A DNA stretch of 64,000 nucleotides, from positions 35,351 to 99,350 of the IMG/VR virus record IMGVR_UViG_3300048995_000010; one strand, written 5' to 3'. Below, one piece after another: positions 25,843 to 47,696 of the stretch. Every line of letters begins with the position of its first letter. Position 1 is the first letter of the stretch. The position numbers and the translations under genes were made by a program. This DNA is from a virus (taxonomy: Duplodnaviria; Caudoviricetes). A model generated the notes under the pieces. That model was given only the letters and a program-made list of their open reading frames with translations, did not search any database and was not told the DNA's origin.

Positions 25843-28715
25843 ATGAACAAGAACATCAATTCTACATCCAAACCATCTTCAAGAGCTACTTGGAATAGGC
25901 TCATAGCCATCCATTATAACACTTCTCTTGACCATCAGACTCGTGTTCAAGCTCATGTATTGCTCAACCAACTCAATACAGCTGGAGGTAAAGAACTCAT
26001 GGAACACGAAGCCATTTCATTCTGTAATAGAATAGAACAAACCTTCCAACCTACATTATGACACACTCAGAACACACCAATTCTACATGGCAACTACTCT
26101 CTACAGCACCCCTCGATGGTACTATCATACGTGGCAAGTGGGCTAACCAAGAGACTGAACTCGTCAGATATTCTCAAAAGAGATACACCTGGGATATAGC
26201 TGCACCAACTGAGTTCATATCTATGGGACCTGGATGGGTATCAGCTAATCCAAACTACAAGGATGCATGTATTGATCCACCACACGAGTGGAAACCACTA
26301 TAAACTCAGTCACATGCCACTATTACTACATCTGAAGAAGATCATCGGTTACCTATGGTGCGTATTCATCCATCAATGGGGTTGGTGGAAAATGAAAGAA
26401 CCGTATGGTCCCTATCATTGCAACAAATGTGGCAGAGTCCACAAATGGTTGGATAGTCACTTCAAATAACGAAAAGCCACTGTCACACGGTGGATAAACT
26501 ATGTGAACACTATGTCTATCACAGCTGGTACTACAACTGAGAAGGATTTACATCCAAATACTGGCAAGGATCAGCCAGCCAAGCCATTTGATTTTGCCAA
26601 GACTATTCAGTACTCACAGCCAAAGCGATCTTCTATGCAGAGTGAGCATACTATCCTCTTCAACAAAGGAAGATACTTTGAGACCTCTATCTATAGTCCC
26701 CAGATATTAACCGAGTTGTGTGAGCTTACTGGCTTCAAGCACCAGGATTCTAATATGATAGTACAACCATGGACAGACCTGGAAGACTTTGTAATAGCCA
26801 TGAACATCCTTGGTATCTACGTTGACATCACAGTAGATTGGATATAAAAACATTGTGACTACTCAGCTCTGTATATAAACACCTCAAAACTCACCGCTTA
26901 AAAGTGGGAATATTACGGTTGAGTACAGAGCTGAGTAGTCTAATTTCATTGCTAATCAAAAACATCACCACATGATCATACAATTACGTGATGGCGAGAC
27001 TTTACGAGCCACACAAATTCTGTTTAATTCCGGAGAAGACTTTATCAGTCACATCAATGAGGGACCAGAGTCATACACTACAGATATTGAAGACATATAC
27101 AGTGTATCAGATAACCCTGTACCCACGTCTGTTAACCTCTACCAACAGGTTAAGAACTACATACTCTCAAGCTGGTCTAAGCATTGTATTACCAGGGATG
27201 ATGGAGTACGACTGGAAGCAACCAATGGGAATAGAGCGATAATTTTCCTTCGACATTATGGAAGTACACCATTTCTATGGATTACTTCTAAAGGTAGTGT
27301 ACTTAGATTCAAGGGGTATATCCGTAACATAGAGGACTTCAAGCTATTATTTGAACTAACCAGTACACTGACTCCTTTTTAAAGCAACACTATGAACTGT
27401 ATGAAGAAGTGCTTTGATAGTAAAGAGCTTGCACTCAGTGCAATGAACTATCATAATGCTCAGGCTGATAAACACGGTTGGAAGATTATGAAATCAGTAT
27501 ACTTCTGCCCTAACCACCAGGCATGGCATCTCACTGCTATGAGTGATGGAGATGTCCGTAATGTACTGAGATTCGAAAAGAGTTTAGAGAAAAGTGGGAG
27601 TAAGATTCTACAGCGTATACAGGCACGATTTGATCACCACATGGAGATCTGCAAAAACAAACTCCTGTTGCCTGATGGTACTTACAGACAACCGGACGCC
27701 GAGAGTCATAAAGAACTCATGATTTCTCTGGTAGGCTTTAAGAAATGGCCAGTCAAATTCAAGTACGTAGAAATGTGGTGGTCGAGATTACCAGAACATC
27801 AAAAACACAAACCAAGTGAAACAACAACCATTACTCACACATGACCAGTTAGTTGACTGGCTCATCTACCACTGTCCTTTAAAGGATAGCAATATATCAT
27901 ATGTCCCATTTCTGGTAGAGTACTTCTCACCTGACACCTTGATTACTGTAAGAAACTCTGGGGATATTCCTTCACAAACATATAATCAGGTTGCTCTCGA
28001 AATACAGAGGTACTACAAAATACACCGGGAGATCACTGACCTATATTGGTACTGGACAATTTAAACTCATCATCATCATGACAAAAACAGAATACAAAAA
28101 CTTGAACACGGAGTTTACAGGATATACTGGAAAGAAGAAGATAATTTCACCGTGGGAGCTATCGGTAGTCTCTCAAACGGAGACAGATGGATCATGTCAG
28201 CGAACTGGATAAATACCAGTGTAGCAGGCCCTGAGAGTTCTGTCTGGGAGCTAATAGAAAGGATGGAACTTATTGAAAAGATGGACTATTATCAGAAACC
28301 GGAAGGAGAACATACTGCTCCACTTCTTCCCTACAGAATACAGATTAAAGATCAGCAGTTAGCAATCTCAAAGAGACCTAGTATTGTGATAACTGAATGG
28401 GGTGTAAGAATGTCTCTTCCTCACCTACTTGCTGCTCTTAAAGAGCGTGGCTACCAGATTACTGAGCCACCATCTAAAGCATTTACTGAAGTGAAAGAGT
28501 TCCTGGATACCCATGACTATTTTTCACGGGTTGACAGTATTGGTGATAGTATCTTCATCTATACTCACAGTGTGAAGGAAAGAAAGATATCTATATCCAG
28601 AACAGACTCACGGACTCAGATATCAGTTTTCATAAGGAACACTAATGATCCTGTTTTTGTAGGTCATGTAGAGTCTTTGAAAGAATTCGAACTGATCTGG
28701 AACCGTATTATATAA
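25843..28715 (+). CDS. Cluster of small early hypothetical genes (25843-26061, 26058-26303, 26314-26469, 26512-26847, 26972-27382, 27392-27844, 27816-28064, 28194-28715)
   Basis: Tightly packed co-oriented ORFs with A/C-rich Bacteroidota-type leaders; no recognisable domains. Confidence 0.55.
26468..26506 (+). promoter_or_regulatory. Leader H-type pseudoknot motif, copy 1
   Basis: AACGAAAAG-CCACTG-TCACA-CGGTGG-ATAAACTA-TGTGA; covaries with copy 2. Confidence 0.55.
26857..26940 (+). ncRNA. Intergenic element closed by a perfect 17-bp inverted repeat
   Basis: GACTACTCAGCTCTGTA / TACAGAGCTGAGTAGTC. Confidence 0.55.
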
Positions 28716-28731
28716 CTCTTAACTCATCACC

Positions 28732-29181
28732 ATGTACACACCTACAAAAAAGCAGTGGAATACTGTGATTGACAATCTCTACAAAATATTACCCCTCACA
28801 TTTGAAGCCGGTATAGGCCACCTGAATATGTCAGAAGGAAGTGTAAACGACGAACATACATGTGGCACTGTACACTGTCTGGGAGGTTGGTATGCCATAG
28901 CAGTATTCGATACAGACAGACGCAAGGTAACCTTTAGAGAGGGTGCCAATAAAATGGCCGAGGCTCTTGGGTTTAACCGTTACACTGATCTGGATCGATG
29001 GGCAGCATTACATCCCCATATTTGGGGGAATGGACATGGGCTCCACATGTTCTGTAGTAGGAATGCTTACGATTATGCTGAATCTATCTCCGACATCATT
29101 GTGTTTTTGGAGAAAGTGAGAGACCGGTCACCTGATGGTCCTGCACCATATCATCGTAATCCAGACAACTGGTTAGATTAA
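28732..29181 (+). CDS. Hypothetical protein with CGTxxCxxGW metal-binding motif
   Basis: HTCGTVHCLGGW. Confidence 0.65.
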   Translation: MYTPTKKQWNTVIDNLYKILPLTFEAGIGHLNMSEGSVNDEHTCGTVHCLGGWYAIAVFDTDRRKVTFREGANKMAEALGFNRYTDLDRWAALHPHIWGNGHGLHMFCSRNAYDYAESISDIIVFLEKVRDRSPDGPAPYHRNPDNWLD

Positions 29182-29188
29182 ACTTCTT

Positions 29189-29816
29189 GAGGACATCCTG
29201 TGGGAGAGATGGTAGTGTAATATCATCCTGCAGGGCTGATTGAGAATTAAATGACCTCAATCTGTAACGCGGATAAGTCATAAGCTGTGCCTACATCTGT
29301 ACTGCTTAGGGCGAATTTCAGGTTCGACTCCAGGTGTCCTTACAAGCATTGACTACTAAAAGCTGTGGTATCTCCCACGAGAGACATCGCGACACCCGAC
29401 CAGCTAAGGGTGACAGTTTAATGGTGGTGTAGTCAGTGCCACTCATTACCTTATGGGTTGAGGTACCCATATATAATTTGTGGCCACAGAGAATATGGGA
29501 ATAGGTAACGCCTTGTGGAGGGTTCGAATCCCTCTACTTCAACAAAGGCTGATGTGTCGTCTAACTGGCTAGGACGCCGGCAGGTATGTGGGTTCAAATC
29601 CCATCACATCAGCAAAGCTGATCATGTCATCACACTTGAATTGCTGTGTACGAGGGTTATATGAGCTAGTGTACTAAATTCCAGCCTGTATCATATAGCC
29701 ATGTGGTATTGATCAGCACAATAGAAGTGGTAAACCGGCTTCCCTACACGCGAGATCCAAGGGAATAATTAAGGCAATGTTCTGCGTATCATTGATCTAA
29801 CCGGAGCCACTTCTCA
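29189..29816 (+). ncRNA. Array of six end-paired structured RNAs, three with T-loops (tRNA-like)
   Basis: Terminal stems at 29189-29341, 29346-29439, 29457-29543, 29548-29613, 29617-29717 and 29723-29814; mostly short A-rich spacers; no plus-strand ORF. Confidence 0.75.
29548..29614 (+). tRNA. tRNA-like RNA lacking an anticodon arm
   Basis: 9-bp acceptor GCTGATGTG/CACATCAGC; D-arm CGTC-TAACTGGCTAG-GACG; T-arm GTGGG-TTCAAAT-CCCAT; only CCGGCAGG where the anticodon arm should be. Confidence 0.7.
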
Positions 29817-29822
29817 TTTTTA

Positions 29823-29855
29823 AACGAAAAGCCACTGGCACGTGGTAAACTGCCA
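29823..29855 (+). promoter_or_regulatory. Leader H-type pseudoknot motif, copy 2
   Basis: AACGAAAAG-CCAC-TGGCAC-GTGG-TAAAC-TGCCA just before the ATG at 29863. Confidence 0.55.
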
Positions 29856-29862
29856 AAAACAA

Positions 29863-32435
29863 ATGACAATTACATTCACTCATGGAGCTGTACTTGTAGC
29901 CAAGTCAGCCCATATTCTCACAACTCCTATTGACGGATTAGCTGTTGATCCTATAGATGATAAGCCAGATCTGTACTACTTAATTGATATCAAGTCGATT
30001 CTGCCTACTACAAAACAAAAGGCGCCTACAGATCTACAGACACAATTTACCCGGCACTTACAGGATCGAGATTATGTGTGGGATAAGAAACATTCTACAG
30101 CTGCTGCCGGTGTTATACTCAAGAGACAATCAGATGGTGACTTCTGGCTCTTTGGGCTGGACGGTGAGATCATGCACAATCCTGAAGCATTACTAACTGT
30201 TCAACTATAAAAGAATCATCATGAAATACCATATATGGTCTGAAGGTTTTGCAACTACTGGACAATCGGGACAAGCTATGTGTCATACAGATAAACCTAT
30301 AGAAGCTGAATCCTTTAACGAAGCTGTTAGGATCTTTGCAGATGCTAATCCAGACTTTGATGAAAGTCTTGTACGTCATAAAGATGGTCGATGGACATAC
30401 TGGGGCTGTAACTTATTCGATAATGAGACAGATGCCCGTAAATCATTTGGATAACTTCTTTTCGTTTACTCCAATATCCCTAGCGGTGAGGAGTAAACAT
30501 TATTTCAAAAACAAAAGCAATGACAAATCCCTGGATACGGATCATAGAGACTCCACCACCCCAGAATCAAGTAGTCGAAACCAAAGTAGATGACCTGGAG
30601 GGTCTCAGGAATCTACAGAATCTGAAATTGGTAGATAAACTCTGGTTCTTAGCTGATGGTAGTATGTATGTCTATTATACACCAACGCATTGGCGTCTAA
30701 ACCCATAATTCATGTCAGATATCAAAGTATATAGAACAGAGAAGAACTTCCCCAACAGTAAAATACCTGAGGGCTTTGAATCTTTCAAGTCCAACCTAAA
30801 GGAGATCCATATGATCAATAGTAGAAAGAAGAATCCTTCACTGGTATTTATTACTGAGGATCAAAAAGGCCACTTTGGTATACAGAACCGGATAGAAGTG
30901 TCCTTTGAGGATTTGAACAAGGCCCTGGCCGAACTGGGCTATACACTCTATCAACCTTAAAACATGAAGACAATCATTGAATACCAGTGTGAGATCTGTC
31001 AAAGAACATATTCATCTGAGAAGCAAGCCTTTCAGTGTGAAGCTCGCGGGGTATTTACTGGAGAAAACTATCCTGTAGGTCTAATGTACAGTTACAGTCA
31101 TAATGGATTTGTTGGAATTTTTGCTATAGCACCTTCTACATTTGAACGTATGGGAGATCATTTTGCTAAAATGGTATCCTGGGCTTGTAGAGCACCTGGA
31201 TGCCCTGACAGCTTAGGAAGTGAGGTGTGTTCTGCTGGTAACACTATAGACAATTCTCCAGTAGCCTTCAGAAATTGGATATCAGTCAGTTATATTCCGG
31301 CTGACCGGGTTGATGGCCCGGAGTTTGCCCGCATGGTTCAATTTTTGAAAAGCCGGGGCCTTATACCCAGGTACTACGATCACAATCTAAAACGCATAGA
31401 ATTATGACACAGCAAAAACAAAGGCAACCAGGACAGTACTGGGTGAAATTCCTGGAGTTTTCCAACACCTGGATAGTAGCTTCCTGGAAAGATAATGCCT
31501 GGGAACTCCCCACTATACCCTCAACATATGGGGATCATATGATGTTGGAGATCGATGAGACTCCAGTCACCCGGGAACCAAAAACAGAACCTAAAAAGTC
31601 TATACTGGCTAATTTAGAGTATACCTGGCCTGATGGAAGTATGATCCAGACAGCAATGGAGATGATACAACTCAATATGGGGTGGATCATTCGCGATCTT
31701 TCTGTTCAGGTAGAGCGTATAGCACTGGCTCAGGAGCCTCAAAGAGAAGCTACACTCCAGCTCTCCTACCAGGTGGAACGTATTGCCAATGCTCTTGAGA
31801 GCAAAAATGAGCCTCTCAAACTAAAGAAGAAACTGTCCTATCAAGAAGTTCTTGATGTAGCCAAGAAGCTCTCTGAGGATAACCAAGAAGAACAACAGGA
31901 AGGAGTGACTGGTCCAGCCCTTGAGCTGGCTAAGAAGCTGGTGGAGTCCTGGAACAAACCTCATAGCAATCCACCGGTGATAGACCTGCCAAAGCTGTGG
32001 AAAGAGTGTGGAGAGGATAAATGGAAGTTTGGAGATCATATATGTACTCTCATGAATCAGGGTTCTGTTTTTGGTCATATCAAGCCCAAAGAAGGTGGGT
32101 ATAGACCTGCAGGACCTGGAGTAACCTTGGAACCTTCAGCCTACGACAAGAATCATCCTGATTACAAAGGGGATCTGGGAGCTGTACAAAAACAGAACCC
32201 AACTACCTGGATACAGTGGCAGTTTTTAATTGAAACACCTTATTCGAAACTCTCACATGAATATCCATTCTATCAGGTAGCTGCCGGTTCTACTGTGGTA
32301 AAGTATAAAGTATGGCTCCCAAAAGGGGTATCTGTGGGACGATGGTATCATGCATATAATGTTAAATTCATTTCGGAAGCCTCTCAGCCAATTTTTGGCC
32401 CTGATTTCCCGAGACCGGACTGGTGGGAAGGATAG
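29863..32435 (+). CDS. Cluster of hypothetical genes (29863-30210, 30221-30454, 30520-30708, 30712-30960, 30964-31407, 31404-32435)
   Basis: Co-oriented abutting ORFs; 30964 has an N-terminal CEIC Zn-finger-like motif. Confidence 0.6.
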
Positions 32436-45694: not shown

Positions 45695-46841
45695 ATGAAA
45701 AGTCTTGTCATCACCACCTACCATGTTCAGAAATCAGAAGGGTACAGTATCCCCAACAACCCAGTAGCAATTGCATTTCAACTAGAGAACCCTGATATGT
45801 ATAATGTCAAAGTCATCAATAACCGGCTGAGTGCTATCCGTGAAGGTTATCCAGTTCGTTTTCAAGTGATTGGATATACACCAAAAGATCATTTGGATCT
45901 GGTGCATGAACGACGCCAGACGGTAACTTGTCTATTGCGGGTACTAGCTGTCCAGGCTACTGAAATGGTATAAATTCGCTTTGGAAGATACTGCCAAGGG
46001 TGGTATCTTCCCTTCTTTTCAAAAACAACAGCTATGACATCTAACACACAACAGGGGCTAAAAGATTTCCTGAATTTATCGGCCGACAATGAAGTCGCAA
46101 TGTTCATTGTAGGTACTAAAAAGAAGACCAGCAAGATGCGCTATGATGAATTCGTCAAGTATAGTTTACCTCCGCTTAATGATCAGATCAAAAAGTACCT
46201 GGATTCAGTAGATATATTGATGCGGGAATGTGGTACTATTAAGAAAATTGAAGAGCTACACCTACCTAGTCTTCCGGAAGAAATCCGACTATGGATTGCA
46301 AATCATATCGATAAGCAGAAAGGAACTCTTGTAGAAAAGACATATCTCTGCCTGGATTTGATTCGTGCAGCCAGTAATACTATTGGTACTAACTGTGGTA
46401 AGATGGCGATGCACTATGGTAGAGCACTTCAAATGGCTCCAAAAATTGTAGGACTCGATGGACAATCTCTCTAACCAATTAAAGGATAGGTTGAATTTCA
46501 AGAGTCTTCTTATACCCTCTTGGTTTGGAATTAGATCAGAAGATTGGATTAGGGTTATGGACTCCATAGAGAAAGTCATTTGTGAAACAATGGCTAAGGA
46601 AGTCATTCAAAAGTTGCTGGAGATAGAAAACTCTCCTGAGTACTGGATGGACTGTGTTTCATGGCCCCATCCAGATCAGAAGTATCTCAAAGGACTTGCC
46701 TATCTCATTGACCTGGAGGCACCTGAAGACTGGCCAATTGAAATGAAAACTTTTGTTTTTGCCTATACCTTACAACAGATGCGTATGATCGCTCCTAAGT
46801 TACTAATGGAAGTGTACAAAATCAACCAACAAAAACAGTGA
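45695..46841 (+). CDS. Three hypothetical genes (45695-45973, 46034-46474, 46458-46841)
   Basis: Co-oriented ORFs with typical leaders. Confidence 0.55.
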
Positions 46842-46844
46842 ACT

Positions 46845-47696
46845 ATGGATATGGATGAACAACTAGGGGACTGGTATCCCCTACTTTCTCATGTCTTTAA
46901 GGAGCCATGGATGCAAAAACTTGGTAGAAGATTAGCCGCTGCAAAGTGGTTACAACCAAAGCTCGAAGATGTGTTCCGGGCATTCCGGTTATGTTCTCCT
47001 GAGTCACTCAGAGTGGTAATCATTGGACAGGATCCTTATATAAAAGGTGAGGCTGATGGACTGGCCTTCTCTTCCGGGGATAGGATGACACCATCTCTTC
47101 AGGTTGTTTTTGAAGAGATCAATCGTACTCATGAGTGTAAACGAACAGTTACTTGTCTGGATGACTGGGCAGAGCAGGGAGTACTGCTTCTTAACTCTGT
47201 ACTCACTACAGAAATGGAAGTGTCCCGGGCGCATGCCGGCTGGGGATGGGAATTGTTTGTACAGGAAGTTCTTCAAGTTCTCAGGAGTATGGATGAAAAT
47301 TTCGTGTTCATGACCTGGGGAAGAGATGCACAGAATGTCTTGAAGTCTTTTAGGCCAAAGACATTTTCAAACTATAGCGCATGGAGAATTTTGAATGCAC
47401 ATCATCCACAAGCACAGAACTACAATCCTGATAATAAGTTCGTAGGATGTAATCATTTCATCGAAGCGAATCTCCATCTGTTGAAACATGAACAGTATCC
47501 GATCTGGTGGTCCGACTCAAAATATCTGTCAGATCCAGAGAACTACAGGAAATATTGTGAAACCCTTCTAAAACAGATTCCCAATGCTACAACTCGTTTC
47601 GCTGAAGTCTTGCGTAGCAATGCTACAGTACCGGACACACCACGAACTTTCAATAAGGGATTGGAATCCGGATACGTTGATGATCTCCCATTTTAG
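46845..47696 (+). CDS. ung: Uracil-DNA glycosylase, family 1
   Basis: VVIIGQDPY, GLAFS, WAEQGVLLLNS and HHP motifs. Confidence 0.92.
   Translation: MDMDEQLGDWYPLLSHVFKEPWMQKLGRRLAAAKWLQPKLEDVFRAFRLCSPESLRVVIIGQDPYIKGEADGLAFSSGDRMTPSLQVVFEEINRTHECKRTVTCLDDWAEQGVLLLNSVLTTEMEVSRAHAGWGWELFVQEVLQVLRSMDENFVFMTWGRDAQNVLKSFRPKTFSNYSAWRILNAHHPQAQNYNPDNKFVGCNHFIEANLHLLKHEQYPIWWSDSKYLSDPENYRKYCETLLKQIPNATTRFAEVLRSNATVPDTPRTFNKGLESGYVDDLPF

Follow-up and report, generated by a model that had tools for sequence, protein, structure and literature searches.

What does a soil crAss-like phage encode at nucleotides (nt) 29189–29814 of the window, between two of its early-type genes? The window is the whole stretch of DNA analysed here, 64,000 nt long, and forms the right-hand 64 kb of a virus record of 99,350 base pairs (bp) in IMG/VR (IMGVR_UViG_3300048995_000010). 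Six units with pairing ends stand at this site in tandem on the plus strand, and sequence comparison identifies the region as an array of distinct structured plus-strand RNAs, not of decayed transfer RNA (tRNA) genes. Homologs are referred to below by the numbers of their loci (L017 and so on), which are DNA of related soil crAss-like phages reached through homologs of the two flanking proteins. The six units are:

29189–29342, plus strand: unit 1, an expanded non-decoding cloverleaf; homologs in L017, L025, L026 and L033
29346–29439, plus strand: unit 2, a closed-stem RNA with an 11-bp terminal stem, two inner hairpins and no T arm; folding z-score −2.5
29457–29543, plus strand: unit 3, a tRNA-like four-way junction; homolog in L018
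29548–29613, plus strand: unit 4, a tRNA without anticodon arm; homologs in L017, L018 and L025 (two copies)
29617–29717, plus strand: unit 5, a candidate closed-stem RNA with the 8-bp stem GCUGAUCA/UGAUCAGC; folding z-score −2.05
29723–29814, plus strand: unit 6, a candidate closed-stem RNA with a 9-bp terminal stem, followed by CAUUUUU; folding z-score −2.5

Layout of the array

Spacers of CAA (3 nt), 17 nt, AAAG (4 nt), AAA (3 nt) and ACAAT (5 nt) separate the units, and CAUUUUU forms the tail. An earlier description of this DNA, made from its letters alone and called here the sequence-only reading, had reported all six end pairings and the short spacers (3–5 nt in four of five cases), and each is found where it was placed. 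Its statement that the plus strand carries no open reading frame (ORF) needs a small correction, as a GTG-start ORF of 49 amino acids (aa; 29515–29664, plus strand) overlaps units 3 to 5; it is without support as a gene and was judged spurious. Small ORFs as an explanation of the region were dropped, as were DNA repeats resembling miniature inverted-repeat transposable elements or attC sites.

Together the six units cover 595 of 636 nt, against five units and 560 nt in the best of 300 dinucleotide shuffles, and in 1975 sliding windows along the phage genome the tiled length always stayed below 590 nt. Folding z-scores lie between −2 and −3 for all six units, values that are biased because the ends had been picked for pairing. 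The array lies on the sense strand of early genes, unit 1 starting 7 nt past a stop codon with no promoter evident; a scan for sigma-70-type promoters and for terminators yielded nothing of use for a phage of Bacteroidota.

ARAGORN called no tRNA or transfer-messenger RNA (tmRNA) in the array, the tRNAs of the window being confined to 43.5 kb, and Rfam at its gathering thresholds returned no match in the window. A sensitive Rfam search of 28900–30100 gave one real match, unit 4 as tRNA (RF00005), with 36.5 bits, a score obtained with permissive filters only and to be read against a gathering cut-off of 29 bits for tRNA. Units 1 and 3 had no tRNA match in this search. The sequence-only reading had expected tRNAscan-SE, ARAGORN or Infernal to return either nothing or pseudogenes, which agrees with the silence of ARAGORN and with a sole Rfam match to a unit whose anticodon arm is deleted.

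Units 1, 3 and 4 have a 7-bp acceptor stem that stacks directly on a 5-bp T stem capped by a T loop (UUCRANY); units 2, 5 and 6 have no such arrangement. An anticodon stem with a 7-nt loop occurs in none of the six, and units 1 and 3 have long arms instead. The three T loops had been recognised previously, as had the lack of any decoding tRNA, and both points are borne out: units 1, 3 and 4 have no usable anticodon loop. The view that the array is packaged like tRNAs suits these three units only; units 2, 5 and 6 have no T arm and no homologs.

Unit 1: a tRNA body with a variable insert

As read from its alignment and predicted fold, unit 1 is a tRNA body with variable cargo in the place of the anticodon arm, a natural tRNA-scaffold design. 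Its 7-bp acceptor stem (GAGGACA/UGUCCUU) is followed by an A in the discriminator position and by CAA. From the 5′ end, the acceptor strand leads into U8, then a D-like arm (P2) that contains an inner hairpin, a second arm (P4), a linker, a T arm with a UUCGACU loop and the discriminator. P4 occupies the anticodon-arm position and is closed by GCU.../...AGU; it is otherwise unrelated in sequence between phages and measures 31, 60, 87, 28 and 30 nt in the five that have the unit. The linker is 13 nt long and reads AACGYGGYAAUUC across the relatives; in the window it reads AACGCGG..AAUUUC, with an extra hairpin.

Both ends of the five homologs can be aligned, and RNAalifold recovered the acceptor, P2 and the T arm from this alignment, with 9 of 32 predicted pairs retained although both sides had changed. 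Examples are pair 1–72 (G·U, G–C or U–A), pair 2–71 (A–U or G–C) and the T-stem pair 51–63 (U–A, A–U or C–G). Separate minimum free energy folds of the L017, L025 and L033 copies gave one common four-way cloverleaf. A covariance model of the unit scored the five copies at 93–145 bits, and a scan of all collected DNA with this model yielded no members beyond these five. Acceptor identity elements are not conserved among the homologs, and a G3·U70 pair is present in the L033 copy only.

In the engineered tRNA scaffold of Ponchon and Dardel (2007), the anticodon arm is reportedly replaced by an arbitrary insert, and the tRNA body is said to provide processing and stability. Unit 1 has the same design; it differs in being natural, in its expanded D-like arm and 13-nt linker, and in that processing would have to be assumed.

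Units 3 and 4: tRNA-like forms without a decoding arm

Besides a 9-bp end stem (a 7-bp acceptor plus 2 bp), the fold of unit 3 has one long arm, the mini-hairpin AGG-UAACG-CCU and a T arm with a UUCGAAU loop. The T arm is canonical, and there is neither a D arm nor an anticodon loop. Its folding z-score is −2.9, and none of 200 shuffles folds as well. The sole homolog, in L018, is 90.5% identical, with an acceptor G·U replaced by G–C and a T-stem A–U by G·U.

The fold of unit 4 comprises a 9-bp terminal stem (a 7-bp acceptor plus two pairs between leader and trailer), an intact D arm and a T arm with a UUCAAAU loop. The sequence CCGGCAGG stands at the place of the anticodon arm, and in the Rfam tRNA match (29550–29612) 15 positions of the model are reduced to 5 nt. 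Two adjoining copies in L025 clarify how this form arose. Copy 4b has an anticodon arm (with a 6- or 8-nt loop) and matches the Rfam tRNA model at 44.3 bits, and copy 4a is armless; taking 9 nt away from copy 4b, the 5′ strand and the loop of its anticodon arm, gives unit 4. Read in this alignment, unit 4 clearly descends from a tRNA by deletion. Copy 4a has lost the T-loop sequence (UGAAAGU); compensated changes have preserved its T stem and its terminal stem of 13 bp.

Across the family, 94% of the cells of the aligned stems are paired, and five pairs are changed on both sides, compared with a mean of 1.7 in shuffled alignments (3 of 500 shuffles reach the observed value). When the registers are slid, pairing falls to 29–49%. 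The terminal stem has 9 bp in the window and 11 bp in L017 and L018, and an outer pair has changed from G–C to A–U. Such a long stem may mean that the precursor is held closed, or that the mature RNA keeps a stem longer than that of a tRNA.

The deposited call for the downstream gene in L017 (3679–4101) starts at an ATG within the T arm of unit 4. The resulting 25-aa extension is unshared by homologs, and unit 4 of L017 is therefore masked by a false protein start.

Units 2, 5 and 6

The remaining units are represented by one sequence each, and the other RNA families of this study comprise only two to five sequences. Unit 5 is, on its sequence, the weakest member of the array, having no homolog and a stem of a length that is common by chance. 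No shuffle out of 200 folds as well as unit 6, which may also serve to end the transcription unit. A U tract follows this last unit, and the corresponding position in L025 holds a standard hairpin-U terminator (2935–2962, 3′ of the array, with the loop GUGUCUAC).

Conservation and turnover in related phages

The array is found among early-type genes, between a 149-aa gene and a 115-aa gene with a start codon (ATG) at 29863. The features around it are:

28732–29181, plus strand: upstream early gene of 149 aa without a family, ending in a stop codon 7 nt ahead of unit 1
29818–29862, plus strand: leader of the downstream gene, AAACGAAAAGCC, a hairpin CCAC..GUGG, then UAAACUGCC
29863–30210, plus strand: downstream early gene, 115 aa, no family; arrays sit before its leader
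26857–26941, plus strand: Z2 element, a closed-stem RNA with an end stem of about 18 bp and an inner hairpin CUCAC..GUGGG, between two early genes

Seven genomes have a gene-free structured stretch directly upstream of the leader. Their units, lettered where they differ from those of the window, are ordered as follows:

Window: 1-2-3-4-5-6
L017: X-1-4
L018: Y-3-4
L025: 4a-4b-C-1, then the terminator
L026: 1-Z-Z2′
L024: Z-Z2
L033: 1-T

Upstream of more distant homologs of the downstream gene (L027, L032, L034 and L035) no array was found. The differing sets of units, and the lack of any in these distant homologs, indicate that the site is a hot spot occupied by variable RNA modules.

The units are better conserved than the genes beside them. 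Compared with L017 and L018, identity is 94% for unit 4, 90.5% for unit 3, 96% for the 5′ domain of unit 1 and 96% for the leader, and it is 73–76% for the upstream and 66–68% for the downstream gene. Pseudogenes would be expected to be the least conserved part of the region and not, as these units are, the best conserved. The sequence-only reading had named decay of homologs without compensatory changes as one result that would speak against it. What is seen is that units 1, 3 and 4 recur with compensated stems and outdo the neighbouring genes in conservation. In these alignments the compensation seen in the stems shows that the fold is under selection, which marks units 1, 3 and 4 as real, selected RNAs.

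Turnover extends beyond the hot spot. Homologs of the Z2 element occur in L018 (at about 558–642, intergenic) and within the L024 array (885–964), with the terminal stem swapped yet paired. Since Z2 is intergenic in the window and in L018 and part of the array in L024, modules move between sites. In family Z (L024, L026) and family Z2 (window, L018, L024) the interiors are about 85–90% identical, and the terminal stems of 10–18 bp have been replaced wholesale and still pair, with eight pairs (Z) and seven pairs (Z2) changed on both sides. A conserved interior within an end stem that is free to change as long as it pairs fits insulated modules whose interior is read by something, rather than simple nuclease sites.

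Outside these loci no relatives were detected. Neither blastn nor tblastn of both flanking proteins returned a homolog among the INPHARED phages, pattern scans of IMG/VR with unit 4, the leader and the unit 1 motif gave no relative (the last hit one unrelated ordinary tRNA), and the motifs of units 1 and 4 found nothing in GTDB genomes.

A preferred reading and its rivals

The reading that we prefer, and to which we give a little less than an even chance, is that of an early-region cassette array of small RNAs in which units 1, 3 and 4, derived from tRNAs, would be processed and decoy-like in trans. For transcription, processing, CCA addition and the decoy role we infer the following scheme. 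Transcription would run on from the upstream gene into the array, which would form the 3′ portion of an early transcript. Each unit would fold independently, its closed terminal stem conferring resistance to nucleases. In the tRNA-like units, ribonuclease (RNase) P of the host would generate the 5′ ends and RNase Z or exonucleases the 3′ ends, after which CCA would be added. Once freed, the RNAs would work in trans, either as aptamer-like modules or as mimics of tRNA that are stable and do not decode, and would titrate an RNA-binding factor of host or phage, the likeliest targets being tRNA-directed defence enzymes that read the acceptor, the T arm and CCA.

RNase P, RNase Z and the CCA-adding enzyme recognise a tRNA by the half formed by acceptor and T arm, which units 1, 3 and 4 have retained. 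The non-decoding shape, the early accessory location and the cassette turnover of the units all fit titration of tRNA-binding factors. Cas12a3 of a bacterium of the Bacteroidetes, the host phylum, cuts the CCA tails of tRNAs by way of acceptor stem and T arm and tolerates loss of the other arms (PMC12851939), from which we infer a plausible target class.

A wider proposal would see in these sites an exchangeable arsenal of RNA genes of this clade, built from closed-stem or tRNA-scaffolded aptamer-like modules that host tRNA enzymes mature and that are reshuffled among intergenic sites as accessory protein genes are. Each module would neutralise a different host factor, such as a defence nuclease recognising acceptor stem, T arm and CCA tail, in an RNA-based counter-defence in which unit 1 would be a natural scaffold with swappable cargo. 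This we put forward tentatively and consider rather unlikely. Phage tRNA genes are now read chiefly as countermeasures to tRNA-cleaving defences, a picture into which non-decoding tRNA shapes do not fit; these are usually dismissed as pseudogenes. Conservation above that of the neighbours, compensated folds and cassette turnover point to RNA effectors and not to translation aids. If the RNAs were indeed processed and acted in trans, the arrays would offer a comparative handle on the 50-year-old puzzle of RNAC and RNAD of phage T4 and a natural counterpart of the engineered tRNA scaffold, and the few RNA-based anti-defence tools on record would be joined by tRNA look-alikes. A practical point for annotation is that gene callers place false protein starts over such RNAs, as in L017.

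Several observations weigh against the preferred reading. The 9–11-bp end stems of units 3 and 4 include pairs of the leader (positions −1 and −2) with positions 73 and 74, and the −2:74 pair covaries; because of this pairing the two units are not ideal substrates for canonical RNase P cleavage at +1. A search of the phage genes found no CCA-adding enzyme, RNA ligase or Ro/TROVE protein. Among the sequencing runs matching 27000–32000 of the window there was no RNA run, the sole match being a soil-metagenome DNA run, which may be that of the source sample. In unit 1, the T stem of the window copy has an A·A mismatch and the acceptor of the L017 copy a C·A mismatch. The identity of the units could in part reflect recent cassette recombination rather than purifying selection, and covariation statistics from alignments of four to five sequences are thin. 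Units 2, 5 and 6 lack a T arm, none of the loci and collections searched contained a homolog of them, and taken one by one their end pairings differ little from chance. Stems of at least 8 bp at such spans occur by chance about 8–10 times per 636 nt, so that the pairings of unit 5 (8 bp) and unit 6 (9 bp) are not significant individually, although the whole tiling is still unusual.

The strongest rival, which we nevertheless regard as unlikely, is that the units are punctuation acting in cis. They would be processing and stability signals by which host RNases cut a polycistronic early transcript (RNase P and RNase Z at the tRNA-like units, RNase III at the long stems) and would leave protective ends on messenger RNAs, in the manner of plant mitochondrial t-elements and of the RNase III sites of phage T7, the excised RNAs being by-products. 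The position of the array, exactly between a stop codon and a conserved leader and with its last unit followed by a U tract or terminator, agrees with such a role, as do the single Z2 element between two other genes and the terminal stems of 13–18 bp in the relatives, which are enough for RNase III. Plant mitochondrial t-elements, tRNA-like structures that are cut by RNase P and RNase Z and so set messenger RNA ends, are an established case (PMC1920247). However, t-elements are single cis signals and one signal would be enough, whereas the phage array has six different, tandem RNAs in a row. Their interiors, including loops that are irrelevant to RNases, are 85–96% conserved while the terminal stems are free to change, and close relatives manage without most of the units.

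It is also conceivable, though quite improbable, that the units serve as ligands or sponges for a phage RNA-binding protein that recognises a motif common to them and the leader of the downstream gene, tuning how much of this regulator is available, in an autoregulatory circuit and not in counter-defence. The motif GGUAA, often as GUGGUAA(A/G)C, is about four-fold enriched in the arrays and is present in the leader hairpin, the leader is 93–96% conserved, and the arrays are always directly upstream of it. Yet this is a short motif with small counts, the homologous loci are not independent, and units 3 and 4 are without the full motif. No RNA-binding protein was identified, and the fold matches of the downstream protein are weak.

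Still less probable is a decaying remnant of a tRNA array, composed of drifting pseudogenes and chance hairpins. A phage related by its capsid has a full tRNA array, unit 4 arose from a tRNA by deletion, the T stem of unit 1 in the window has a mismatch, and units 5 and 6 are unsupported, all of which would suit a remnant. It is disfavoured for units 1, 3 and 4 by their conservation, far better than that of adjoining coding DNA, and by stems that remain compensated even after loss of the T-loop sequence (copy 4a of L025). The domains of unit 1 that are foreign to tRNA are moreover conserved in five phages, and the array is not syntenic with the tRNA array of that relative.

We see only a very slight chance that the units function in a translation-related role, as tRNAs or tmRNA-like molecules of unusual shape (charged carriers outside decoding, or ribosome rescue), since the intact acceptor/T-arm half and the G3·U70 pair of the L033 unit 1 are set against the lack of a 7-nt anticodon loop or conserved triplet, of a tag frame and of a pseudoknot, and against variable acceptor identity elements among the unit 1 homologs.

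Comparison with known systems

RNAC and RNAD of phage T4 mature together with the tRNAs of that phage. These small, stable RNAs (species 1 and 2) are not tRNAs but are encoded in the tRNA region of T4, on one transcript with the tRNA genes, and their role is unknown (PMC3014915, PMC9697503). They are the closest precedent, compared here by genomic layout alone. Small non-tRNA RNAs of a phage are seen in both cases. T4 has two among eight decoding tRNAs, whereas the present array, in a crAss-like phage, consists of six units, has no decoding tRNA next to it and shows turnover of cassettes among relatives. The sequence-only reading had suggested that the system may be undescribed; this overstates the case, given that RNAC and RNAD are long-known non-tRNA stable RNAs of a phage tRNA cluster (PMC3014915). 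With tRNA itself (RF00005) the array shares the acceptor, T arm and T loop of units 1, 3 and 4 and the D arm of unit 4, and it differs in that no unit has an anticodon stem-loop.

The tRNA-microRNA-encoded RNAs of murine gammaherpesvirus 68 form a viral array of non-aminoacylated tRNA look-alikes, which serve as handles for host tRNA enzymes to release small RNAs. The herpesviral array differs in its eukaryotic setting, its transcription by RNA polymerase III and its microRNA cargo, and it has no homology to the phage array. A wider context for this comparison is given by viral tRNA-like RNAs (PMC12680231).

Miniature or armless tRNA shapes have also been described as inserts in phage tRNA genes of the Lak type (PMC6784885). 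Unit 4 has the shape and size of such an insert, but Lak inserts are nested in an anticodon loop and the units of the array stand in tandem. A nested tRNA intron of this type was rejected: the units are flanked by complete ends of their neighbours, by a stop codon or by the leader, and there is no split tRNA. We also rejected tmRNA (RF00023), to which only T arms match (13.3 and 6.6 bits, the cut-off being 47), with no ARAGORN call, no tag frame and no pseudoknots. In Y RNAs of the YrlA type, the ends form a stem that binds Ro/Rsr, on the anticodon side of the tRNA-like domain. The ends of the array units form an acceptor stem by the T arm, which is the opposite topology; with no Rfam match and no phage TROVE protein (a host Rsr is possible), this class was set aside too.

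Ribozymes like that of hepatitis delta virus (HDV) fold into a nested double pseudoknot: the 5′ end forms P1 by pairing with an interior strand, and P2 is closed by the 3′ end. One report places HDV-like theta ribozymes at the 3′ ends of phage tRNAs (PMC10879173). Theta and other self-cleaving ribozymes were discarded here: units 2, 5 and 6 are each closed by one contiguous helix of 5′ and 3′ ends, and no ribozyme family matched at E-values up to 10. In the literature we found no paper on arrays of tRNA-like RNAs in Crassvirales; one preprint only lists low-scoring ‘tRNA-like’ pseudogenes.

The phage and its relatives

The major capsid protein resembles the major head protein of PHROG 11589 (1.4e-65), which is of crAss type. 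It shares about 31% identity over 95–97% of its length with the capsids of crAssphage and crAss002, and likewise over nearly its full length with those of Flavobacterium crAss-like phages; by this capsid comparison the phage is a crAss-like member of Crassvirales. Structural genes occupy the minus strand up to about 24 kb and are followed by many small plus-strand genes without known families.

Two relatives by capsid (G001 and G002, 58–59% identity) do not share the neighbourhood of the array. One of them, G001 (59%), a soil crAss-like phage, has 21 canonical tRNAs in one array (locus L015, G001 40000–47053), of which 4 have an encoded CCA. As most of these tRNAs are without encoded CCA, reliance on CCA addition by the host is normal in the group. 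The same array contains several gene-free gaps of 200–560 nt and three weak tRNA-like matches (26–29 bits).

The tRNA-like genes seen in the clade of the window all have abnormal anticodon loops. Those of the window at 43502–43577 and 43686–43757 have the loops GUAGACA and GCGUUUA, one in L033 (4323–4397) has a 9-nt loop, and one in L025 (2587–2657) a 6- or 8-nt loop. To judge from these genes, the phage may be without any normally decoding tRNA.

Flanking proteins and the leader

Searches of a large protein collection with the flanking proteins gave 18 and 12 clusters of homologs, mostly on contigs from soil or the environment that reach 110 kb. The upstream protein had no match in IMG/VR. 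Its homologs are 68–73% identical at the amino acid level in L017 and L018, where an array follows, and 54–59% in L019 and L021, where none follows. For the downstream 115-aa protein, Pfam and PHROGs returned no match, and an Atlas search was uninformative. Its C-terminal half is very conserved (YxWDKxHS..DGDFW..GEIMHNPE). A confident AlphaFold model (predicted local distance difference test score of 88) weakly resembles Sm/SH3 barrels in its first 50 residues (Z = 5.6 for YaeO/Rof, Z = 3.4–3.9 for Hfq); these matches are below a meaningful level and too weak to name the fold.

The leader is 93–96% identical in L017, L018 and L025, relatives whose genes are only 66–78% identical, and it is also present in L027, L032 and L035. 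A second copy stands before another early gene of the window (26468–26500; AACGAAAAGCC, the CCAC..GUGG hairpin and UAAAC). The leader may be a phage promoter or a translational operator. On the DNA level GGTAA, often as GTGGTAA(A/G)C, occurs 15 times in the 2.6 kb of arrays and leaders of the seven genomes, compared with about 1.3–1.6 times per kb elsewhere, and by its distribution may be a shared protein-binding motif. A 21-mer of the leader also precedes a start codon on the metagenome contig L031 (185–205, minus strand), an unrelated contig and the sole return of a metagenome scan with the leader.

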